Below are positions 34,385 to 51,163 of a stretch of DNA of 64,000 nucleotides, one piece after another. The DNA comes from Candidatus Pacearchaeota archaeon. Lineage in GTDB: Archaea; Nanobdellota; Nanobdellia; Pacearchaeales; GW2011-AR1. The first letter of the stretch is position 1; each line of letters opens with the position of its first letter. The stretch is from positions 1,188 through 65,187 of the forward strand of contig JBAZCR010000004.1 of NCBI GenBank assembly GCA_041654895.1, written 5' to 3'. Made by a program: the position numbers and the translations under genes. The notes under the pieces were generated by a model, which did not search any database, was not told the origin of the DNA, and saw only the letters and a list, made by a program, of their open reading frames with translations.

Positions 34385-36100
34385 TTAAGCACCACATCCA
34401 GCATATCCACATTCACAAGTAAAACATCCAGATTGCATTATTAATTTATCGCCACCACAAGAAGGACATTTCATACCCACTATTTCTTTTCCATCGTCAA
34501 TAGTCTCTGCTAAGAACTTTCTAACAGCTGTTAGTAAGGTAGAGATATTATCTCCTTCGATTCCTGTTAAAGAAACAAGTATATCTTCCCTTGGTATGTT
34601 ATGTCTTAAACACAATGATAACATTCTTCCAAGTCTATTATGAGGACTATCACCTAAGCATTTATCCCAAGTATCATCAATTAATTTATGTTTAAGTCCA
34701 CATTCTAATGCTAATTTTGAAAGAGATTTACAAGCTCTATTACAAGCAATAGCTTCACCTTTTTGGTTAGTATGTATCCACATTGCAATTGGATATTTCA
34801 TATTTGTATCTTCTTTCAAATAAGAAAAATGAATATAAAATTTCATACCTTCTTTTTTAATAATTTTAGTAGGTCCATTAATAAATTCGGAAGGTAATAT
34901 AACACCATCTTTAATTATTTCTTTCTTTTCTTCTACTTTCTCTAAAGTTTCAATAACAGATTCCATTGATCCAGTACGATAAGTAGTAACACCAACTAAT
35001 CCTCTTTTCCAAGCATCAATATATAAATTCTTAAAATTAGAAAAAGAATATTTATTTGGTAAATTAATAGTTTTACTTACCGATTGATTACAATAATATT
35101 GACACATTGATTGTATATTTAAATGATCTACTATATCAATATCATTTGCAGTAATTTTAGTGTTTATTTTCTCGTGTGGTTTATTATCCAATAACCATTG
35201 ATACCCATAATCTCTTAATATATAAACTTCACATATTCCTCTGTTATGTGGTTCGTAATAATAATGTTTACCATTATATTCTCCTTCCCAATATACAAAA
35301 TCATTTTCTTTTACTTCTTTGAATAATTTTTTAATATTATCAGAATTTAACCCTTCCGGCCATTTACACATAATTTTTCTTTCTGTTTCCAAAGAAAAAA
35401 TAGGTTCAATACCATTTGAAACATAATCACATATAATAGAACTGTTTCCAAGAGGAGGAGCAGTTGTTGTTTTAGCATTTCTAACACCATATTGTTTAAT
35501 CAAATCTTTAGTTTCTTCCCAAAGTCTATCAGATTTAAAATATTTTGTATTGGAATATAATTCATAATCAAAAAGAGGGAATGGTCCTTTTTCTTTTGCA
35601 AGTAAAGCAGATTCCTGCATTGTTAAGTTTTCTTTACATTCGTGTATTGTTTTAGTAAAAGTAACCGCATCAGGAGAATTATATGGAATACCTAACATTA
35701 ATAAAGTAGAACCCAAACCATTTACACCCATACCAAATTGCCTTAAATTCTGAACTGCCCATTCATATGAAGGTAAAGGCAATTTACTTAAATCACAAAC
35801 ATTATCTAACATTCTAGTAAAGACTCTAATATCTTGTTTATATGTATCCCAATCAAAATAAGAAACACCATCACTAATATATACATATTGAGTTAGGTTA
35901 ATTGACCCCAAAAGACAAACTGTTGTCATATCTGGATTACCTGGAATTTCTCCACAATTATGAACAAGAATACCGTTTGCAAAAAAGTTGTGATTATTTT
36001 CTGTTGTTATGTCATACACATCAGCATTTTCTTTAATATTAATTTTTTTTATTTTTATTTCTTTAATATTTGGATTTTTGTTTTTCTGACTTTTTTCCAT
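34385..36100 (-). CDS. nrdJ: class II ribonucleotide reductase, C-terminal fragment preceded by a split-intein C half
   Basis: Starts with IntC ...NHNFFANGILVHN, then extein CGEIPG...; C-terminal CxxC...CxxC. Confidence 0.8.
   Translation of the reverse strand: MEKSQKNKNPNIKEIKIKKINIKENADVYDITTENNHNFFANGILVHNCGEIPGNPDMTTVCLLGSINLTQYVYISDGVSYFDWDTYKQDIRVFTRMLDNVCDLSKLPLPSYEWAVQNLRQFGMGVNGLGSTLLMLGIPYNSPDAVTFTKTIHECKENLTMQESALLAKEKGPFPLFDYELYSNTKYFKSDRLWEETKDLIKQYGVRNAKTTTAPPLGNSSIICDYVSNGIEPIFSLETERKIMCKWPEGLNSDNIKKLFKEVKENDFVYWEGEYNGKHYYYEPHNRGICEVYILRDYGYQWLLDNKPHEKINTKITANDIDIVDHLNIQSMCQYYCNQSVSKTINLPNKYSFSNFKNLYIDAWKRGLVGVTTYRTGSMESVIETLEKVEEKKEIIKDGVILPSEFINGPTKIIKKEGMKFYIHFSYLKEDTNMKYPIAMWIHTNQKGEAIACNRACKSLSKLALECGLKHKLIDDTWDKCLGDSPHNRLGRMLSLCLRHNIPREDILVSLTGIEGDNISTLLTAVRKFLAETIDDGKEIVGMKCPSCGGDKLIMQSGCFTCECGYAGCGA
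35957..36100 (-). mobile_element. split intein 2, C half (48 aa)
   Basis: DVYDITTENNHNFFANGILVHN followed by +1 Cys. Confidence 0.8.
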
Positions 36101-36151
36101 GATTTTAGTTCCTCTTTGTATGATGTATTAGTGTAACCTGTGGTTATTTTC

Positions 36152-36892
36152 TTATATTTTTATCAATATATCATCTTCGGTTAATTCAGAAGCATTAACA
36201 TACCCTCTATTCTTTGTATATACTTTGTGATCAGGAGTTAATGTTACCGACGTTCCATCTTCCAATTCCAATTCTATAACATTAGTGTTATCTCTGGTTT
36301 TATCCCCAAATGTAACTTTTTCAAATTCAAATTTATTATTATTAATATTAAATGTTAAAACATTTATATCATTTCCTTCTCGAATTTCTTCTATTATTGA
36401 TCGAATAGTCATTTTCCCTTTAGTTGTATCAATTAAAGTATCACCAACTAAGCAAGGGTTGGTCGCGTTACATTTACCTAAATATTCAATAGGATTATTT
36501 TCAGAAATATTATCAACAAAAATAACACCTGGTTCTGCTCTATTATAAGTAGATTTCATTATCAAATCATATAAGTCTTTTGCCTTTACTCTTTTAATGG
36601 TTTTCCCTTCCCATTTCAAATCCCAAAAAGAATCATTTATTACACATTCCATAAAATCATTTGTAATAGCAACTGACAAATTAAATTTCGTCAATTTACC
36701 AGGTTGTTGTTTTATTTTAACAAATTCTTCAATATCAGGATGTGAACAATTAGATGTATAAAAAGCATTTTTAGACCTCTTATCCTTTGCTATAATTCTA
36801 TGTACATTTTCAACAGAAAAATCATAAGAGTTGTCAACTTTTTTCGGAGTAATACTTTTTAATTTCTGAAATTGTACTTTTAATTTTTGCAT
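36152..36892 (-). CDS. nrdJ: class II ribonucleotide reductase, middle fragment flanked by intein halves
   Basis: IntC (..NAFYTSN) + extein CSHPDIEEFV...NATNP + IntN (CLVGDTLI...ILIKI stop). Confidence 0.8.
   Translation of the reverse strand: MQKLKVQFQKLKSITPKKVDNSYDFSVENVHRIIAKDKRSKNAFYTSNCSHPDIEEFVKIKQQPGKLTKFNLSVAITNDFMECVINDSFWDLKWEGKTIKRVKAKDLYDLIMKSTYNRAEPGVIFVDNISENNPIEYLGKCNATNPCLVGDTLIDTTKGKMTIRSIIEEIREGNDINVLTFNINNNKFEFEKVTFGDKTRDNTNVIELELEDGTSVTLTPDHKVYTKNRGYVNASELTEDDILIKI
36155..36454 (-). mobile_element. split intein 2, N half (100 aa)
   Basis: Begins CLVGDTLI inside the NPCGE active-site motif; TLTPDHKVYTKNRGYVNASELTEDD; ends at a stop. Confidence 0.8.
36749..36892 (-). mobile_element. 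split intein 1, C half (48 aa)
   Basis: ATG after GAGGA; YDFSVENVHRIIA...NAFYTSN followed by +1 Cys. Confidence 0.7.
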
Positions 36893-37204
36893 TATTATCC
36901 TCACTTACTAATGTTATTATATATTGTTTTATTGTTTCCAAATCGTTATAAATATCCTTTTCCCAAAATCTCAATGTGATATATGGTCTTCCATCCATAT
37001 CCTTTTTATTTTTTAATAAATTTTCTTTTAGTTTATCAGCAACTCTATTATTTTTCTATCTTCAATATTAGAAAAAACTTTAGAACTTCTGTGCCAATAG
37101 TCCCCATCTATTTCAATGACAAAAATATAATTATTATGCCAAACAAAAAAATCCCATTGTTTATTTTCGGGTAGAAAATATGATGACTCCCCAACATAAA
37201 CCAT
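36834..37204 (-). pseudogene. Vsr/DUF559-like homing endonuclease between the intein halves, frameshifted
   Basis: VIEIDGDYWH in one frame; ADKLKENLL..GRPYITLRFWEKDI in another; the break is at the T5 run 37051-37055. Confidence 0.6.
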
Positions 37205-37220
37205 ATCCAGGATGTCGTAT

Positions 37221-38207
37221 TTACTCCGATATAATTATTTTTAATTCTTCATTTTCAACATCAATATCTTTAATTGCTTTTAAATATATTTCCCCAGTAG
37301 TAATATTTCTAACTTCAAATTTATGATCTTGAGTTACCTCAATTATAGAACCATCCTCGGTTTCAACCTCAAATATTTGTTCGGGTTCTTTTTCAAAAGC
37401 ATCATAAATTAAATTTAATTCTCCGGTATCGGAAACACATTTTATTTGTTTTCCACTAATAACATCATCAACAATATCAACAATATTTCTCCAACCAGAA
37501 TCGGTTAATATTAATGTATTTTTTGAAAAACAAGATAAAACACCCATCATAGCACCCTTTCTTGGCATCTTATTAATTACATCAATACATTCATCCATTT
37601 CTTTTTTAGATAAATAATTTTTTAATGTATCAACATAACCATCATCATGCCCTTTCACAATACATTCAGAAACAGAATCGAATATTTTCATATACGAAAC
37701 AACTCCTGGGTGTCCTACTCCCGTCCCTTTAATTAACGATCCTCTTGGTCTAATAAAATCGAAATTTATACCCCATCCACCCTCGGATGCTAATGTTTTT
37801 GCTTGTTCTAAAACAGTCAAAAATATATTGATTAAATCATCACCTGTATCTGGAGTTTTTATTTTAGTTGTGTTTTCGAAATTATCATTTTTTCTTGTGT
37901 ATTGTATTTTTGCATTTTTGACAGGTCCGGAGATAAAACAATTAATTAATGTTGCTCCATTATATTCTGTTCCAATGTTAGATGTAATACGACCACCAGT
38001 ACTACATTTAATTCCAATAGGTTCTGAACCATTAAATTTAAGTAATGTTTTTAAGAATACATCTTCCCATTGTTCGGGATTTTTTTCTTTTGATGCCAAT
38101 ACTTTAGCTATTCTTTTAAATGTTCCTAAAGGAGATTCATCATTATATTGATATTTACTCTTCCAGTTCTCATATCCTATTCTAGTCTTGAAAAAATTTT
38201 CACCCAT
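37221..38207 (-). CDS. nrdJ: class II ribonucleotide reductase, N-terminal fragment ending in a split-intein N half
   Basis: SEGGWGINFDFIRPRGSLIKGTG, KGAMMGVLS, then CFSKNTLILTD... to a stop. Confidence 0.8.
   Translation of the reverse strand: MGENFFKTRIGYENWKSKYQYNDESPLGTFKRIAKVLASKEKNPEQWEDVFLKTLLKFNGSEPIGIKCSTGGRITSNIGTEYNGATLINCFISGPVKNAKIQYTRKNDNFENTTKIKTPDTGDDLINIFLTVLEQAKTLASEGGWGINFDFIRPRGSLIKGTGVGHPGVVSYMKIFDSVSECIVKGHDDGYVDTLKNYLSKKEMDECIDVINKMPRKGAMMGVLSCFSKNTLILTDSGWRNIVDIVDDVISGKQIKCVSDTGELNLIYDAFEKEPEQIFEVETEDGSIIEVTQDHKFEVRNITTGEIYLKAIKDIDVENEELKIIISE
37224..37532 (-). mobile_element. split intein 1, N half (103 aa)
   Basis: Starts with Cys (TGT at 37532-37530) after GAMMGVLS; TQDHKF block; ends at a stop. 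Confidence 0.7.
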
Positions 38208-43322: not shown

Positions 43323-45149
43323 TTACTCAAATTCAATAACTTTATTATCTCGTATCTTTTTATTCTTTTTTAATATTCCTTTAATGTCGGTTATTGCATT
43401 CTTTTCTTTCTCCTGTTCTTCTTTTTCTGTTGGAGGTGGAGGAGTTCCAATTGTATCAGAAATATTATCAGGATCATCTGATATTCTCATTTTTTCATAA
43501 TTAACACATACAGTAATTTTTCTTCTATTAAGACCATATCTATTTTTCAATAATTGCCAACAATATTTACCAACACTTCTTAATTCGTCTGATTGTGTCA
43601 TAGCAACAACAACATCAGCAATCTGAACAAAACCAATAGATTCTCCAGTATTATCCAAATCCAATTCTGTAGATGTCAATCCTTTTCTATCTGTTTGAAT
43701 ACCAGAAACCATAGGAACACCATATTCAGAACCGAGAGCACGAACTTCATTAGAAACCTTTTTCATTTCAGTATAGGTATTATCTCCACGACTTCTATGA
43801 ATAGGGTTCATATTTTCTATTTGATCGATATAAATGATATCGGGTTCAAATTTCATTTTAGTTTTTAAATCTTTTAACAAATTTCTAATAGCATTAGCAT
43901 TTATAGATTTACTTGGATATTCTTTAATAATAAATTTATCCTTAAATCCTTTTGATATTTTTTCATATTTTTCGTGAAATTTATCCCTTGACAATAATTT
44001 TAAATCATCCATAGGAACATCAAAAATATTTGCCAATATTCTTTGAGCAGTCATTTCTTCTGATAATTCACAAGAAACATACAATACTTTTTTATTCATT
44101 AACACATTAGAAACAGCAGAAGATGCCATAACCAAACTTTTTCCAACATTGGTATTATGACTACTAACACCATTCGTATAATATCTATGATTTGGATGGT
44201 TGATAGTGACATCAACAATATTATATTTTTTGTTTGATTTTTTTATTTGAAAATGCTTATATTTCCCATCTTCACATAATATCACATGTTTATTACTATC
44301 CAAATCTTTTGCATAAATCCAACCAATATTTGTTTCATACAAATGATTCCAACTTGATATTATTATTTTATTATCTATGTGTAATTCATATCCATTTAAC
44401 CTCCCCTTTTCAACATAATTAGTAACAGGAACCCATCCATCTAGAGATGTAATTTCAACATCGTGATGAAGTAATAATTTTTTAATTTCTTTTATTGATA
44501 CTTCCTTCTCAATCCACTTTTCCATATATCTCTTTTTATATCTAATTTTAACTTTGGTGTTTTCATCTACACATCCTGCAAGAAATAATGTTAATGATTT
44601 TGCGTGATATCCACCATTTATTAGATTATCAAAATCTTTCAATCCTGTAGGAACAATATGTTTCTTTTCGTGAAAGAAGTCATACAATCTATCCTCTTCA
44701 TTAGAGATATTCAACCCAATAGATGTATCAAATGAAAAAGAATGTGCCTCTCTAAGCTTATCAGGTATTTCACCAATTTCATCCATAGTATCATTATTAA
44801 TATTTTCAGCAATGTCTAAAGATAGATTCCAAATAATTTTCTTTTTTAAGAAACCTTCAATTTCATCCAATAAAAATTCATTATCATATTCAGAAGTATC
44901 CATTTGTGTTATTTTCATTAAATGATCGTGAACTTCTTTAGATTTAATATCTATTCTAGATTCTTTAATTGTAGGAAATCTTTCGTATTTATTATCAAAA
45001 GAAAATATATGTTTCATTAATTCTATATTATTTTTATCATCAAATATTTCAACATTGAGATAGGGCATAACCCTATCTCTAACTTTTTCATTTGTATATA
45101 AAAATTTTATTAGTATTTTTTCAAAAAACAATGGGTCTTTACTCGTCAT
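43323..45149 (-). CDS. DnaB/gp41-like replicative helicase containing a mini-intein
   Basis: Walker A split as LFLAG | intein | TNVGKS; SGIQTDR; ATG at 45149 after GAGGA. Confidence 0.85.
   Translation of the reverse strand: MTSKDPLFFEKILIKFLYTNEKVRDRVMPYLNVEIFDDKNNIELMKHIFSFDNKYERFPTIKESRIDIKSKEVHDHLMKITQMDTSEYDNEFLLDEIEGFLKKKIIWNLSLDIAENINNDTMDEIGEIPDKLREAHSFSFDTSIGLNISNEEDRLYDFFHEKKHIVPTGLKDFDNLINGGYHAKSLTLFLAGCVDENTKVKIRYKKRYMEKWIEKEVSIKEIKKLLLHHDVEITSLDGWVPVTNYVEKGRLNGYELHIDNKIIISSWNHLYETNIGWIYAKDLDSNKHVILCEDGKYKHFQIKKSNKKYNIVDVTINHPNHRYYTNGVSSHNTNVGKSLVMASSAVSNVLMNKKVLYVSCELSEEMTAQRILANIFDVPMDDLKLLSRDKFHEKYEKISKGFKDKFIIKEYPSKSINANAIRNLLKDLKTKMKFEPDIIYIDQIENMNPIHRSRGDNTYTEMKKVSNEVRALGSEYGVPMVSGIQTDRKGLTSTELDLDNTGESIGFVQIADVVVAMTQSDELRSVGKYCWQLLKNRYGLNRRKITVCVNYEKMRISDDPDNISDTIGTPPPPTEKEEQEKEKNAITDIKGILKKNKKIRDNKVIEFE
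44154..44573 (-). mobile_element. contiguous mini-intein (140 aa) in the helicase P-loop
   Basis: Cys1 (TGT at 44573-44571) ... YYTNGVSSHN, then +1 Thr; no endonuclease domain. Confidence 0.8.
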
Positions 45150-45165
45150 ATACAATAATCCTCAA

Positions 45166-46334: not shown

Positions 46335-46868
46335 TTATTTGTAATATTGTATAAAATCAAAAACTTTTTTATTCCATCGTGCATCATCTAAAGCATTATG
46401 TATATTTTTTTGTGGAAAGATTTCTAATATAAGATTTTTATCAATTTCCCTATCATCAATTAATTGTTGTAAATCCCTACAATAAAAAGGAAAATGTTTT
46501 GGTAAATCAATCATCCTCCCAAACAACCAACAAAATACAACCCAATCATAATCGGCATAATAAGCCCAAAATTCAGGATTTTTATCATTTACAAGGAAGT
46601 CCATAATATTAATTCTAATTTGATTTTTGGTTAAAACATATCCTCCTGATGTTGGACTTGAATATTGTGAAAAACCATATTCGTTTTCAGGATCATATTC
46701 AAGCATCTTAGATAAAACATTTTCCTGAACCCAATCATCAGCTTCAGAAGTTTTACATTCCTTATTAACATAATAAGCTTCTTTACCTTCTTCACTAACA
46801 ATACCGATTGATATTAAATCAATCTTTTGTGGTTTTTCTATAAACTCGGTATCAAAAAAATATTTCAT
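46335..46868 (-). CDS. DEDDh 3'-5' exonuclease
   Basis: FFDTEF, ADYDW, HNALDDAR. Confidence 0.7.
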   Translation of the reverse strand: MKYFFDTEFIEKPQKIDLISIGIVSEEGKEAYYVNKECKTSEADDWVQENVLSKMLEYDPENEYGFSQYSSPTSGGYVLTKNQIRINIMDFLVNDKNPEFWAYYADYDWVVFCWLFGRMIDLPKHFPFYCRDLQQLIDDREIDKNLILEIFPQKNIHNALDDARWNKKVFDFIQYYK

Positions 46869-46903
46869 ATAATCCCCTTTTTAATAATATAATAAATTCA
46901 TAT

Positions 46904-47575
46904 TTAAAATGAAATGAAGCTACTCAATTCATTTGTTTCTAACTTAATTTTACCCCAATCAAGCACGTCAAAAAATCTCTGAATTATATCCTCAAAAGAT
47001 TTTTGCCATTGAACATCATAATCAATTTCAAACATATCATTGAATTGTTCAGGCCAAGTACCCAAATATCCAATTATATTAGAATGTATTATATTATTAG
47101 GTTTTATATATACAAATCCTATTTTACTACCATTAGAAATGTACTGCAATTTCATTTTATTAGTGGAAATAATATAATTATAACATATAGATGCTCTAAC
47201 GTGAATGGGAGTTGCACTTTTAAAACGTAGACCATTCTTAGTATATTCAGACATACTTAAAGAATATTTATCATAATCACTTACACCCCTTGGAAACGAA
47301 ATATTATCTACTTTAGTTTCTTTAAATTCTTCATAAATATTTCTCAAATAATCTAACGTCTTTTCCTTATCTTGATGTTTTAATAAAAACTTCATAACAT
47401 CAGTTATTTTATCTTTACAAAAAGATGGAGTTGAAGTTCTAACAACTTCTATTCCTGTTACTTGTAATTTAGGTTCTTCATATATTGTTCCTTCTTTATC
47501 AATACAAAGAACACAATATTTCTTTTTTGCAAGAACCATCATTTTAGTAATGATTTTTTCACGTTTAAAATTCAT
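46904..47575 (-). CDS. family B DNA polymerase, C-terminal (thumb) fragment
   Basis: FKREKI..VLAKKKYCV, VTGIEVVRTSTP; start overlaps the upstream stop as ATGA. Confidence 0.8.
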   Translation of the reverse strand: MNFKREKIITKMMVLAKKKYCVLCIDKEGTIYEEPKLQVTGIEVVRTSTPSFCKDKITDVMKFLLKHQDKEKTLDYLRNIYEEFKETKVDNISFPRGVSDYDKYSLSMSEYTKNGLRFKSATPIHVRASICYNYIISTNKMKLQYISNGSKIGFVYIKPNNIIHSNIIGYLGTWPEQFNDMFEIDYDVQWQKSFEDIIQRFFDVLDWGKIKLETNELSSFISF

Positions 47576-47877
47576 AACATTTGTAGTATTATATTTTTTT
47601 CACGAATATCAAGAATCTTATTAAAGAAAGGACTCAAGTAAAGTTTATCCATTTTATTTGCCCATTGTCTAAATTCTTCATTGTTTTCAAATTTAAATCC
47701 ACAATTTTCAATGATTTCATCAAAGCATAAGTATGATGAATTATGAACCAAAATATCATTACCAAAAAAATTATGATTATCTTCAACCTCAATATCATAA
47801 ACATCTAATTCTTGTTCACCTAAACATTCTATTTCAAATTCATCAGTTTCTATATATCCATCAAAAAATTCTTGCAT
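47572..47877 (-). CDS. split-intein C half + short polymerase extein segment
   Basis: ...DNHNFFGNDILVHN, then SSYLCFDEII; the frame ends 1 nt out of register with the next ORF. Confidence 0.75.
   Translation of the reverse strand: MQEFFDGYIETDEFEIECLGEQELDVYDIEVEDNHNFFGNDILVHNSSYLCFDEIIENCGFKFENNEEFRQWANKMDKLYLSPFFNKILDIREKNIILQML
47740..47877 (-). mobile_element. polymerase split intein, C half (46 aa)
   Basis: ELDVYDIEVEDNHNFFGNDILVHN followed by +1 Ser. Confidence 0.75.
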
Positions 47878-48070
47878 TTTTCAATTTCCTTTTTTTGTTG
47901 AGGTTATAATCATCTTCCCAAATATAATAAATTTCAAATCCCAAGTCACTAAAAAAATTCTTTTTATTTTGATCTTTTAAGATTTGGTTTTCTGCTGATA
48001 TATTACTAAAAGGATTTTTCCATTTCTTGATATATTTTTCATTGTCGGGATATTTTACAAATTTCCACAA
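47861..48070 (-). pseudogene. remnant of a Vsr/DUF559-like homing endonuclease
   Basis: Only the C-terminal KDQNKKNFFSDLGFEIYYIWEDD part; no ATG; the open frame runs back into the IntN end. Confidence 0.5.
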
Positions 48071-48113
48071 ATGCCTCCAATTGAATCGGTGTCTATTATA
48101 GTAACAGAAGTAT

Positions 48114-50261
48114 TCATATCTTTTTTGTTATAATTTTGTCTCCTTTTTGAATATTTTTTGGCTTAACATCCATATATTTACCATTTCTTTTAATAATTAT
48201 TGAATGGTCTTCGGTACATATAACTTCTTTTCCATTAACTTTAATTTTATACATATTTTTTTTCACATTATGTTTCATAACATATTTAATTTCTTTATTT
48301 TCTAATTGACCAGATTTTTTATTAATAGAATCCGTTGTATGCAAATCTCTTAATTTACCTATAAATTTAGAATCCCCATACTCATTAATCTCACTACAAA
48401 AATTAAATAATTCTTCAATTGTAAAAGTACCATTATTAGTTTTAATTTTTGTATCCCCAACAACACTATCCGTATCCACCAAAACCACCACATCTTTTTC
48501 AATAGGTTTTATTTCTTTTCCTTTCAATTCAGGAAAGTGTTTATGAGCAATTTTATGCCAATTTTGTTTCATATATTTGTTAATATTAGATGAAACATAA
48601 GTAATCATATCTCTTGCACCAATAGTAATTGCCATAGCATTTTTAATATTATAGAAAGAAAAGAATCTATTACCCAAAACACCATACATAGAATTAATTA
48701 AAATTTTTCGTATTTGTTCTTGGGAATGATAATATGAGGATGTATAACCTTCTTTATCTATTTCTTTAGATAATTCATAAACATAATTTTTTTCCATAAA
48801 AGTATTTCGAGAAATATCATCCAAAGTAAGATTACTTTCCAATCCTTTCTTAACTTTTGATTTATCCTTTAATCTTTTTCTTTCATTGAAAATATTTTCT
48901 ACTATTTCAGCAAGTAGTCCTTTTTTGGTTTTATCATAATAAATACCATCAACAGAAAATTTACCACTAGGAGTATCACATTCATATAAATTGGAAGCAG
49001 CTGTTTTAATTAAATTATCATCGACAATTCCAGGATGAAACCTAAGTGTTTCAGGAGATATGTTATATTGAATCATTATTTTTGGATATAGGGATTCAAA
49101 GTCATATGACATTAAATAATGATATATTCCAGGTTTTGCCATAACAAAACCACCAGGATACGATTCGACCTCTCCCCTTACAATATCAGGCATAACCATA
49201 TTTTTCTTATGTAGATATCTCATCATATATCCTGTAATTAATGATATTGATGAAAATATTCGTTCAAATGGAATTAATGCTTGATAACAAAAATTAATTG
49301 TAAGTTCTATATGTTTCATTTTATCTTCAATTTTTTTTGTCAATAAAACATCTTGAACATTATATTCAACATATCCATTCCAATCTCTTGCCCATAAATC
49401 ATTTATTTGACCATCATAATCCAATTTACCCTCATTAACTTCTATTTTTCCTATTGCCTGCAATGAATATGATACTCTTTTCTTAAAAACAAAATTTTTA
49501 TACAAGTCTTGACCATCTAATATAGATATACCGGCTACAGTATATCCACCCTCTGATATATGATATCCAGAATTTCCTTTCTTTTCCACATATATATTTA
49601 ATGGAGATAATGATAATTCTATTTTTAATTTGTTACATCTATTAATAATATATGTTACATCAAAATTACGACTATTCCAACCAGTAATAATATCTACTTT
49701 CTGTTTTCTAAAATGTTTAATGAATCTCTCTATCATAACTTTTTCATCTGCACAATAATGATAATTTTTTACTAAAGGACTATTACCAGTATAAGGTCTA
49801 ATACCAAACGTAAACAATTCATTAGTCTTAGAATAATGAATAGTTAAACAATTTATTTTATATTCTGCTTCTTTTACCATTTGTGGGAACGGTGGTGGAT
49901 TATCATCAATTTCAAGTTCTATGTCAATTGTAGCAACTTGAAAATCACCCATATCGACCTCAAGTGTTTCGTTTACATATCTTTTTTGTAAAAATTTAAT
50001 ATCTTCTGATATTGATGTTTCACAAGTATTAATACCAGAAGAATTAGCAAAATCTCTCATATCTTTAACGGATTTAGATGTTTGTTTTTTAACCGAAGTT
50101 CCCCAAATGTCGGTAATATTTGATTTATTAGTTTTATCAGGAAGATAATATTCTATTTCAGGTTTAATAGAATACTTACGATTACTACCATCATCATCTG
50201 TTTCCCATAAAAAAATTCTGTTAGTTTTATTATTATAATAGATTCTTCTAAACCCTTTCAT
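48114..50261 (-). CDS. family B DNA polymerase, N-terminal fragment ending in a split-intein N half
   Basis: Exo motifs (TIDIEL, NSRNFDV, YNVQDV), SLYPKI, KILINSMYG, LVDTD, then SVVGDTKI...; ATG at 50261 after AGGAGG. Confidence 0.85.
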   Translation of the reverse strand: MKGFRRIYYNNKTNRIFLWETDDDGSNRKYSIKPEIEYYLPDKTNKSNITDIWGTSVKKQTSKSVKDMRDFANSSGINTCETSISEDIKFLQKRYVNETLEVDMGDFQVATIDIELEIDDNPPPFPQMVKEAEYKINCLTIHYSKTNELFTFGIRPYTGNSPLVKNYHYCADEKVMIERFIKHFRKQKVDIITGWNSRNFDVTYIINRCNKLKIELSLSPLNIYVEKKGNSGYHISEGGYTVAGISILDGQDLYKNFVFKKRVSYSLQAIGKIEVNEGKLDYDGQINDLWARDWNGYVEYNVQDVLLTKKIEDKMKHIELTINFCYQALIPFERIFSSISLITGYMMRYLHKKNMVMPDIVRGEVESYPGGFVMAKPGIYHYLMSYDFESLYPKIMIQYNISPETLRFHPGIVDDNLIKTAASNLYECDTPSGKFSVDGIYYDKTKKGLLAEIVENIFNERKRLKDKSKVKKGLESNLTLDDISRNTFMEKNYVYELSKEIDKEGYTSSYYHSQEQIRKILINSMYGVLGNRFFSFYNIKNAMAITIGARDMITYVSSNINKYMKQNWHKIAHKHFPELKGKEIKPIEKDVVVLVDTDSVVGDTKIKTNNGTFTIEELFNFCSEINEYGDSKFIGKLRDLHTTDSINKKSGQLENKEIKYVMKHNVKKNMYKIKVNGKEVICTEDHSIIIKRNGKYMDVKPKNIQKGDKIITKKI
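48117..48467 (-). mobile_element. polymerase split intein, N half (117 aa, Ser1)
   Basis: Begins at Ser (AGT at 48467-48465) inside the DTDS motif; TEDHSIII block; ends at a stop. Confidence 0.7.
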
Positions 50262-50272
50262 CAACAAACCTC

Positions 50273-51163
50273 CTACTTTCTAATATCAACATAATCATTA
50301 TATAATTTTTCCTCTAAAGCTTCTATTTTACTTCGAAAGTCTACTAAAGAATCACAAAACATACCAGCAGAATTAGAATGACCACCACCCCAACCAAAGT
50401 CATCTAATACTTTACCAATATCTAATGATTCTAATTGACATCTAACAGAAGCTCTTTCTGTCTTTGGGTTTCTAACTACAACTAACGAATATTTTTCTTC
50501 TTCCATTAATTTATGTGCAATTTCATTAATGAAATGAAATGAATTAACAATACAAGCATTAATCCTTTCAAACTCATAAACATCTAATGTATCGTACATA
50601 TTATAAAATTTATCATCATATTCTTTTAACCATTTCAATTCATCATCTGTAAATTCTGTTCGACCATCTATAAATGATTGTCTAAACTTAACAACCTTAT
50701 ATTTGTGAAACATCAAATCATTTAGTTGTTTACTTCTTTTATCTTTCAAAATCCACATATCATAATCATTGACCAAATAAACAAATTCATCCAAATGAGA
50801 TAATTTTTCATTAAACATTTTTTCAAAAAAATGTTTCGTTAATGTAGTAGCACATACATTCTTATTATCTATCACAAAATGATTATTATTAGGATCGTGC
50901 ATATCTGATGGATGATGATCAATCAATATAATTTTATCAGATAAATATAATAAATTTTTATTCTCTGGATGAACATCAGTTATTATAACATAATCATATT
51001 TACTATAATCAATAGATTCTAATTTTTCATCTATATTATAGAAACTAGTACTGATAAATGTAACATTATCAAATACATTAGCAAGAACAATCTGACATCC
51101 TGCACCATCAAGATCATAATGTGATATGGATAATATCTTAGCATCCCTCGGTATTTTTAACAT
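50273..51163 (-). CDS. DHH-family phosphoesterase (RecJ-like)
   Basis: SHYDLDGAG, DHHP, GGGHSNSAG. Confidence 0.75.
   Translation of the reverse strand: MLKIPRDAKILSISHYDLDGAGCQIVLANVFDNVTFISTSFYNIDEKLESIDYSKYDYVIITDVHPENKNLLYLSDKIILIDHHPSDMHDPNNNHFVIDNKNVCATTLTKHFFEKMFNEKLSHLDEFVYLVNDYDMWILKDKRSKQLNDLMFHKYKVVKFRQSFIDGRTEFTDDELKWLKEYDDKFYNMYDTLDVYEFERINACIVNSFHFINEIAHKLMEEEKYSLVVVRNPKTERASVRCQLESLDIGKVLDDFGWGGGHSNSAGMFCDSLVDFRSKIEALEEKLYNDYVDIRK

Follow-up and report, generated by a model that had tools for sequence, protein, structure and literature searches.

The 64,000-nucleotide stretch analysed here (the window) carries on its minus strand a gp43-like family B DNA polymerase (PolB) gene that is interrupted within motif C (Table 1). 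A first open reading frame (ORF) spans 48114..50267 and encodes 715 aa from an ATG at 50261, which is probably the true start of the N-extein. It reads ...VLVDTD, continues directly with the 117 aa beginning SVVGDTKIKT... and ends at a TGA, exactly as the initial annotation had described. The 715-aa protein occurs unchanged on other contigs as well. The next ORF begins at 47877 with MQEFF...DNHNFFGNDILVHN, followed by SSYLCF, and its ATG is preceded by a Shine-Dalgarno (SD) sequence, AAGGAAA, at 47885-47891. Between the ORFs of the two intein halves lies a gap of 236 nt (47878-48113).

Table 1. Features of the interrupted PolB gene (positions in the window)
Feature	Position	Strand	Description
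PolB (gp43-like) N-extein	48468..50261	-	598 aa from ATG at 50261; exonuclease and polymerase domains to motif C, ...VLVDTD
N-intein half	48117..48467	-	117 aa; Ser1 (SVVGDT, block A), NX motif K65-H66, block B T85-x-x-H88; net charge +9
TGA stop of N precursor	48114..48116	-	
Spacer and 5' stub of free-standing endonuclease gene	48050..48113	-	aligned to L012 8939-9003, 93.8% identity
Vsr-like endonuclease gene, 3' remnant	47861..48049	-	last 65 of 347 codons; motif 3 only (...ILKDQNKKNFFSDLGFEIYYIWEDD...)
C-intein half	47740..47877	-	46 aa (MQEFF...VYDIEVEDNHNFFGNDILVHN); blocks F and G, His45-Asn46; net charge -15
PolB C-extein	46904..47739	-	Ser+1 (SSYLCF...) through KKKY motif and thumb; 278 aa with missing C restored

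The two intein halves thus have an ORF each, the first closed by a stop and the second opened by its own start codon where an endonuclease would be inserted. Such a stop and restart could in principle be an assembly or sequencing artefact of a contiguous intein gene, with or without an endonuclease domain, and the record does carry at least one private single-base deletion (see below). However, five independent contigs from other samples (L013, L014, L015, L016 and L018) are base-identical over 48480-47486 or further, through stop, gap and restart, so the layout is not an assembly artefact. None of them shows the contiguous intein ORF that the initial annotation had named as contradicting a split. 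On the contig of a sister phage, L012, the codon corresponding to TGA 48116-48114 is also a stop, namely TAA, and the endonuclease has an ORF of its own. All three frames of the gap contain stops, and cultured phages show the same three-ORF layout. An artefact is therefore extremely improbable. RNA splicing across the gap was also considered and rejected: an Rfam search of 46800-50400 at a permissive threshold returned no intron and no other RNA, the genome uses TGA as an ordinary stop (among 54 ORFs of 150 codons or more, 9 end with it), and further in-frame stops follow the TGA of the N precursor.

The N-extein matches the Pfam families DNA_pol_B_exo1 (9e-17) and DNA_pol_B (3e-29) and is ~30-33% identical to gp43 of T4-like cyanophages and others. 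Compared with L012, Ka/Ks is about 0.09 for the N-extein and about 0.08 for the C-extein, which indicates that both exteins are under purifying selection. As recorded, the C-extein consists of two ORFs, a tail of 55 aa ending at 47572 and an ORF of 223 aa (47575-46904, with a Pfam DNA_pol_B match of its own), which overlap at ATGA. One C is absent between 47601 and 47600, about 25 nt upstream of this overlap, and the deletion is private to the source record. Six contigs of this phage, each from a different sample, have the C and a continuous ORF; once the C is restored in the window, the ORF from 47877 runs to 46904 (324 aa) and reads ...RAKKYNTTNVMNF... past the break. The end of the ORF at 47572, given in the initial annotation, is thus caused by this 1-nt deletion. 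An alignment with T4 had pointed to the frame ending ...NIILQML and a stop as the true one, with the deletion at the ATGA junction; this was overturned by homologues P0010-P0022 and the six contigs.

If the frameshift were real, the product would be truncated or in two chains. The polymerase would then come from three genes: either the spliced product lacks the thumb, and ribosomes that terminate at the ATGA overlap reinitiate there to make it as a 223-aa chain of its own, or slippage on an A7 run restores the frame. The deletion does make a TGA overlap exactly with the ATG of a native Met codon and adjoins the A7 run, the other ~17 kb compared with L012 contain no broken ORFs, so that the record is otherwise clean, and split gp43 chains exist in other T4-like phages. 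Yet the internal ATG has no SD sequence upstream, this frame is open across the site in every more distant relative (...RAKKYNT.NVMNFKREKII), and the six contigs of the same phage carry the continuous 324-aa ORF. We consider a three-gene polymerase improbable; the break at 47572-47575 is most likely an error of the record or a rare variant and not part of the design.

Both intein halves match the Pfam family Intein_splicing (PF14890), with E-values of 5e-11 for the N half and 7e-7 for the C half. When fused, they align over residues 2-162 with the closest solved structure, the Aes123 PolB1 intein (PDB 9HTH; E=4.4e-39, ~50% identity). The insertion between DTD and S of PolB motif C is at the same site as in Aes123 PolB1. 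Alignment with the inteins of Aes123, CC_R7 and PTm1 shows a complete catalytic set: Ser1, T85 and H88 of block B, H45-N46 of the C half and Ser+1. The NX motif, a conserved His after Lys or Arg that is specific to Ser1 inteins (PMC10189870), is present as K65-H66 (VMKHNVKK) and aligns with K67-H68 of Aes123; it is missing from the Cys1 NrdJ and helicase inteins within the same window. In an intein-free homologue (P0012), the corresponding junction is DTDSSY (...LIDTDSSYLCLDEII; in longer context ...VVLIDTDSSYLCLDEII), the very sequence that splicing was proposed to regenerate. For the spliced polymerase of the window, the predicted tryptic junction peptide is DVVVLVDTDSSYLCFDEIIENCGFK. The proposal of a family B polymerase split at DTD/S by a Ser1 split intein is therefore borne out by the 9HTH homology, the P0012 allele and the motifs. 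Homology to the trans-splicing Aes123 intein and the conserved residues likewise suggest that the intein splices in trans and that the replicase depends on it, as had been claimed.

Alternatively, the halves might not splice and might serve as high-affinity dimerisation domains that hold the polymerase fragments together non-covalently. Phage enzyme fragments can assemble via domains derived from mobile elements, as reported for Aeh1 NrdA (PMC3045599), and in T4-like Aeromonas phages gp43 consists of two separate chains, 43A and 43B. Here, however, the interruption falls within motif C, for which an unbroken backbone is expected to be important, and all catalytic residues (Ser1, NX Lys-His, block B Thr and His, His-Asn, Ser+1) are retained. 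Moreover, the closest relative, Aes123, splices, and the intein is near-identical between two phages whose exteins have diverged to Ks >1. Dimerisation without splicing is thus very unlikely. In a relative (L004), Glu replaces the block B His, so not every member of this intein family need be active.

Vsr-like (I-Bth0305I-type) homing endonucleases have three conserved motifs with catalytic Asp, His and Asp. The gap contains an 88-codon open frame without ATG, ending ...LGFEIYYIWEDDYNLNKK..., which weakly matches a Pfam family with restriction-endonuclease fold (PF18741). An intact free-standing endonuclease ORF is absent from the gap. In L012, such an ORF of 347 aa lies between the intein halves; by alignment, the window retains 19 nt from its beginning and ~200 nt from its end. 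The 824 nt of the endonuclease gene in between are missing, and the breakpoint coincides with the 10-nt direct repeat TGTAAAATAT (48050-48059), of which L012 has two copies; the loss occurred between these copies. Of the 347 codons, 6 + 65 are kept, the 3' remnant being out of frame with the 5' stub. Motifs 1 (Y.YDF) and 2 (IIEFNGD.FH) fall inside the deletion and only motif 3 is left. The 3' remnant is 98.3% identical to L012 9828-10000 at the nucleotide level, matches the L012 endonuclease in blastx (5e-37) and shares 17 nt with the start of the C-intein. No weight can be given to this overlap as a feature conserved with Aes123, because it is 28 nt in L012 through an indel in an A-run. The stub retains an SD sequence (GGAGG, 48074-48078), a start changed from ATG to GTG (48066-48068) and 9 codons (VEICKISRQ) before a stop; a -10-like TATAAT is found at 48095-48100 in the spacer. 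It had been stated that the gap holds only the C-terminal part of a Vsr-like endonuclease and no ATG. The remnant and the missing ATG are confirmed, but a 5' stub is kept as well. The string RFNWRHLW, a candidate for a decayed motif 2, was discarded since the L012 alignment places it in spacer and stub, in another frame. No hairpin above background was found in the 5' region of the stub (z = -0.37), and scans for sigma-70-like promoters and terminators gave nothing above shuffled expectation. Alignment with the Aes123, CP21, PTm1 and L002 homologues shows that the endonuclease family is common to all.

Comparison with L012 also revealed a sharp change in identity at the extein/intein borders. 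At the DNA level, the intein and endonuclease segments are 93.8-100% identical (N-intein half 98.9%, C-intein half 100%) versus 78.6-81.2% for the polymerase exteins. Correspondingly, Ks is 0-0.05 for the intein halves and >1 for the exteins. This jump points to recent lateral transfer, in which the intein/endonuclease element arrived or was exchanged recently relative to the age of the polymerase gene. No match was obtained when the region was searched by megablast against phage records, when viral_contigs was searched with peptide patterns and the junction DNA pattern, or when the junction DNA pattern was searched in JGI metagenome contigs.

Taken together, we assign a probability of about 90% to a fractured PolB gene with a split intein at DTD/S, in which two precursors are trans-spliced, the endonuclease is dead by deletion, the element was recently transferred and the break at 47572-47575 is incidental. 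A mini-intein together with a free-standing Vsr-like homing endonuclease gene would form a mobile element in motif C. Two precursors would be made, one of the N-extein (598 aa) and the basic N half (117 aa), the other of the very acidic C half (46 aa) and the C-extein (278 aa). By homology, the halves are expected to associate electrostatically into the HINT horseshoe fold and to splice by oxyester chemistry: an N-O acyl shift at Ser1, transesterification to Ser+1, cyclisation of Asn46 and an O-N shift. The predicted product is an 876-aa polymerase with the motif ...VLVDTD-SSYLCF... intact. The repeat-to-repeat deletion would have killed the endonuclease, once the driver of homing, by removing motifs 1 and 2 and shifting the frame, with the start now GTG. 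Within the surviving ends of its gene lie the stop-side spacer and, for the C-intein gene, the ribosome-binding site and start context.

This arrangement is not new; it is a clear further example of one described and tested in Aeromonas phages, and the window PolB intein reveals no new mechanism. A split PolB intein is annotated in Aeromonas phages Aes123, Aes508 and Aes516 and in Tenacibaculum phage PTm1. The Aes123 intein has been characterised biochemically: its natural fragments (120 + 39 aa) splice in trans, with an efficiency of only about 30% in vitro (PMC11923092). The Aes123 PolB1 system (Aes123 and Aes508; JN377899, JN377894; PDB 9HTH; parent of the CL and CLm inteins) shares with the window the gp43-type PolB, the DTD/S site, the Ser1/Ser+1 chemistry, the NX Lys-His motif, a split at the endonuclease site (120+39 aa there, 117+46 aa here), a basic N and an acidic C half and a homologous free-standing Vsr-like endonuclease between the halves, seen here in L012. 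In contrast, the window comes from a distant phage lineage (its PolB shares ~30% identity with known T4-like phages), and its endonuclease gene has suffered an internal deletion. Its intein also contains three non-catalytic cysteines, against none in Aes123, and the window shows neither the extra gp43A/gp43B split nor a group I intron. Aes516 (gp43B1/gp43B2, JN377905) has the same intein, also with the endonuclease deleted and its C-terminal tail left beside the C-intein start. There, however, the N-intein ORF is joined in frame to this tail of 27 codons, whereas the window remnant is separate, untranslatable and accompanied by a 5' stub.

Alignments show the three-part layout in Campylobacter phage CP21 too, although its record names neither intein nor endonuclease. 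The intein of CP21 (split, with a Vsr-like endonuclease ORF) and that of CC_R7 (a contiguous mini-intein) are homologous to the window intein at about 50-52% identity and also lie at DTD/S; between them they show one element in both its split and its unsplit form. Both belong to another phage group (Eucampyvirinae), and CC_R7 splices in cis. The 'fractured genes' of Dassa et al. (2009, PMC2677866) are phage-like metagenomic loci with a split intein and a free-standing GIY-YIG or Vsr-like endonuclease. The window shares their three-ORF layout, the Vsr-like family and an endonuclease gene whose 3' end runs into the start of the C-intein, and step III of their model, loss of the endonuclease gene, is seen in progress. 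It differs in that the endonuclease is a deletion pseudogene and that the hosts there are gp41, IMPDH, DnaE, NrdA, NrdJ, ligase and terminase, PolB not being listed (PMC2677866). Neither a significant 5' hairpin nor a TATAAATA element was detected at the window locus. An essential replicase is also rebuilt by protein trans-splicing in PolB16 OarG, Nanoarchaeum equitans (Neq) PolB and cyanobacterial DnaE. Like the window intein, PolB16 has Ser1/Ser+1 after ...DTD in a PolB gene, but its split is atypical (15-aa N half) and it matches the window intein weakly (E about 2e-3). In Neq and DnaE the halves are at unlinked loci, and DnaE uses Cys.

The initial annotation had noted a near-identity of the C half to that of the second ribonucleotide reductase (RNR, NrdJ) intein and raised shared ancestry or cross-reactivity. 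The resemblance itself was confirmed: in the 22-aa C-terminal block, 17/22 residues are identical to the second NrdJ intein (36022-35957). However, an unrelated cyanobacterial DnaX mini-intein reaches 16/22 over the same block, nucleotide identity between the pol and NrdJ blocks is 73%, the N halves are 25% identical, and the charge polarity is inverted (N half/C half +9/-15 in pol, -7/+2 and -14/+8 in the NrdJ pairs). The likeness is that of the generic intein F/G motif, and neither special shared ancestry nor cross-reactivity is indicated. Given the opposite charges of the halves, cross-reaction between the pol and RNR inteins is unlikely. Tentatively, and at slightly less than even odds, the phage may run three natural split inteins at once (one in PolB, two in NrdJ), beside a cis-splicing helicase intein, and inverted charge polarity may keep the three orthogonal in vivo, with the endonuclease ends perhaps kept as C-intein expression signals. 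If so, the genome would hold a natural set of mutually orthogonal split inteins, including a new Ser1/Ser+1 member.

Judged from its genes, an uncultured, very AT-rich T4-like phage would depend on protein trans-splicing for its replicase. Several steps of the homing cycle are represented among close relatives: one allele has no intein, one split intein is accompanied by a live endonuclease, and another by an endonuclease killed through repeat-mediated deletion. The window intein, a homologue diverged by ~50%, also enlarges the small set of split inteins of the Ser1/Ser+1 type, which are wanted by protein engineers for thiol-independent ligation.

The window has a G+C content of 28% and carries on its minus strand a T4-like replication module comprising SbcCD-like proteins, a gp55-like factor, PolB, a UvsX-like recombinase, a DnaB/gp41-like helicase, gp32 and NrdJ. 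The PolB of this phage lineage is only ~30% identical to those of cultured T4-like phages. In a domain search, family B exonuclease and polymerase domains were found in the first PolB ORF, followed by a terminal intein splicing domain: ...KDVVVLVDTD leads into 117 aa of intein (SVVGDTKIKT...GDKIITKKI) and a TGA stop. An intein splicing domain was also matched by the C-terminal blocks of the second ORF, which begins MQEFFDGYIETDEFEIECLGEQELDVYDIEVEDNHNFFGNDILVHN and continues with the extein SSYLCFDEII.... The intervening 236 nt carry stops in all three frames and contain one open stretch of 88 codons, which lacks an ATG, ends ...DLGFEIYYIWEDDYNLNKK... and weakly matches a restriction-endonuclease-fold family. 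Splicing is predicted to yield a polymerase of 598 + 278 = 876 aa. The initial annotation, which proposed a polymerase fractured at DTDS by a Ser1 split intein, described this sequence accurately. Between PolB and the UvsX-like gene lies an Rv2179c-like 3′-5′ exoribonuclease gene that is present in all contigs of the window's phage and absent at the syntenic position of L012, a contig from a sister phage.

Coordinates of the PolB, helicase and NrdJ features in the window
Feature	Position	Strand	Remarks
PolB-N/N-intein ORF	48114..50267	minus	likely ATG at 50261, 715 aa
C-intein/C-extein ORF	start 47877	minus	
223-aa ORF	46904-47575	minus	TGA/ATG overlap at 47572-47575
Rv2179c-like gene	46335-46868	minus	177 aa
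Helicase ORF	43323-45155	minus	610 aa
Helicase mini-intein	44154-44573	minus	~140 aa
NrdJ	34385-38207	minus	three ORFs
NrdJ ORF 1	37221-38207	minus	followed by 316-nt gap
NrdJ ORF 2	36152-36904	minus	followed by 51-nt gap
NrdJ ORF 3	34385-36100	minus	

The window's own proteins are recorded from a 65.8-kb contig. In contigs L013/L017, L014, L015, L016 and L018, which represent the same phage in other samples, every base from 48480 through stop, gap and restart is identical to the window. TGA is a normal stop in this genome, ending 9 of the 54 window ORFs of at least 150 codons, and the region gave no match to any Rfam family, group I introns included. Together, these observations establish that the DNA itself carries the split and that no repair takes place at the RNA level.

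A second break, unnoticed by the initial annotation, lies in the C-extein. In the window, the C-intein ORF ends 55 residues into the extein (...NIILQML*), and the stop codon shares bases with the ATG of a 223-aa ORF holding the KKKY motif and the thumb. This arrangement could be read as a biologically meaningful division, but we consider that very unlikely. Six contigs of the window's phage read CGTGCAAAAAAAT and encode a single continuous 324-aa protein, whereas the window reads CGTG-AAAAAAAT, with one C missing between 47601 and 47600; this loss gives rise to the TGA/ATG overlap and divides the C-extein ORF. All more distant relatives carry ...RAKKYNT.NVMNFKREKII in the continuous frame. Only this record has the break, which probably reflects an error or else a rare variant.

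To place the intein, the fused halves were compared with known inteins. They match PDB entry 9HTH, the Aes123 PolB1 intein (E=4.4e-39), and are ~50% identical to Aes123 PolB1, 52% to the mini-intein, contiguous in this case, of Campylobacter phage CC_R7 and 43% to the intein of Tenacibaculum phage PTm1, all of which share the PolB insertion site DTD/S. Ser1 (block A), Thr85 and His88 (block B), His45-Asn46 of the C half (block G) and Ser+1 are kept. Lys65-His66 aligns with His68 of Aes123, the NX motif, which is described as specific to Ser1 inteins (PMC10189870). The Aes intein resides in PolB of T4-like Aeromonas phages, is naturally split into 120 + 39 aa, lacks cysteine and is active in trans-splicing (PMC11923092). 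The proposal that splicing would regenerate DTD-SSY agrees with P0012, an intein-free homologue (64% identical) that reads ...LVVLIDTDSSYLCLDEIIKNSGFKF, the exact product of joining the window's exteins. In the gut-metagenome relative L004 (12-1205), the block B His of the N-intein is replaced by Glu (LTEDES) and only a 58-nt spacer, with no endonuclease, separates the halves; its intein may have lost activity or may work by an atypical mechanism. An in-frame TGA interrupts the C-extein at related PolB loci with split inteins in other metagenomes (L002, 1351-1353; L003, 985-987; L004, 1510-1512). Conserved polymerase sequence continues beyond it in the same frame, which suggests TGA recoding in these phages or their hosts.

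L012 is syntenic with the window (~79% nucleotide identity over 17 kb) and is ordered PolB-N/N-intein, 347-aa ORF, C-intein/PolB-C. The 347-aa ORF is homologous over its full length (31-36% identity) to the inter-half endonucleases of Aes123, CP21, PTm1 and L002, and the alignment of all five has three common motifs, Y.YDF, IIEFNGD.FH and IW..D..K...G...WE. The window aligns with this gene up to codon 6, and the alignment resumes at codon 279 and continues through the last codon, confirming the earlier claim that the gap holds the C-terminal part of a Vsr-like endonuclease without an ATG. Both alignments join on TGTAAAATAT, which has two copies in L012 (8994-9003, 9818-9827) and a single one in the window (48059-48050), marking an 824-nt deletion between direct repeats. 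This deletion removed motifs 1 and 2 and shifted the frame, leaving the stub VEICKISRQ*, which starts with GTG instead of ATG; in addition, the final 13 codons are changed by an indel in an A run. The endonuclease is dead. In Aes516 it is likewise reduced, to a 27-codon tail, and a step of endonuclease loss is predicted for fractured genes (Dassa et al., PMC2677866). In the 1268-nt contig L011, the first 114 nt match neither the window nor L012, while the rest is 99.8% identical to the window, starting at 48036; these 114 nt may come from a chimera at the contig end or from a further rearrangement within the endonuclease remnant.

Nucleotide identity to L012 is 81.2% in the N-extein and 78.6% in the C-extein, but 98.9% in the N-intein, 93.8% in the spacer and endonuclease 5′ stub, 98.3% in the endonuclease 3′ remnant and 100% in the C-intein. 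Synonymous divergence exceeds 1 in the exteins, compared with 0.05 and 0 in the N- and C-intein halves. Ka/Ks is ~0.08-0.09 in both exteins, indicating strong purifying selection. It follows that the two lineages came to share the intein-endonuclease unit well after their polymerase genes had diverged, and that the endonuclease subsequently decayed in the window's lineage.

The three ORFs of NrdJ, the class II ribonucleotide reductase, are linked through a pair of Cys1 split inteins; neither gap has a listed endonuclease ORF. L012 lacks intein 1 and carries a divergent contiguous mini-intein at the site of intein 2. The reported likeness of the pol C half to that of NrdJ intein 2 holds over the last 22 residues (17/22 identical), but a special shared ancestry does not follow. 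The unrelated Spl DnaX mini-intein (7CFV) matches 16/22, the block shares 48/66 nt with synonymous differences at common residues, and identity is only 25% between N halves (E=0.16) and 30% between whole inteins. The likeness is therefore that of the generic F/G motif. Net charges of the N and C halves are +9 and -15 for the pol intein, inverted in sign relative to NrdJ intein 1 (-14 and +8) and intein 2 (-7 and +2). Since split-intein halves reportedly associate electrostatically (PMC11923092), cross-pairing of pol with NrdJ halves should be disfavoured. The gp41/DnaB-like helicase contains a contiguous Cys1 mini-intein (CVDENTKVKI...GVSSHN/T) that is precisely absent from the 468-aa L012 protein.

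In GenBank, Aes123, Aes508, Aes516 and PTm1 each have an annotated split-polymerase precursor with an N-intein or intein and, downstream, a polymerase fragment, labelled C-intein in the Aeromonas records; a VSR endonuclease is annotated in all but Aes516. Campylobacter phage CP21 has the same three-part layout by alignment, without intein or endonuclease annotation. The window agrees with both the Aes123 PolB1 system and 'fractured genes' in the host gene and insertion site, in chemistry and split point, and in the charge pattern and the family of the accompanying endonuclease. Of the features that define the class, only an intact endonuclease is lacking, and its loss has been described as one of the stages that such genes pass through. 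The locus belongs to this already known kind, in a divergent phage lineage. Its value lies in a clean natural series of intein-free, live-endonuclease and dead-endonuclease states, and in one more candidate Ser1/Ser+1 split intein.
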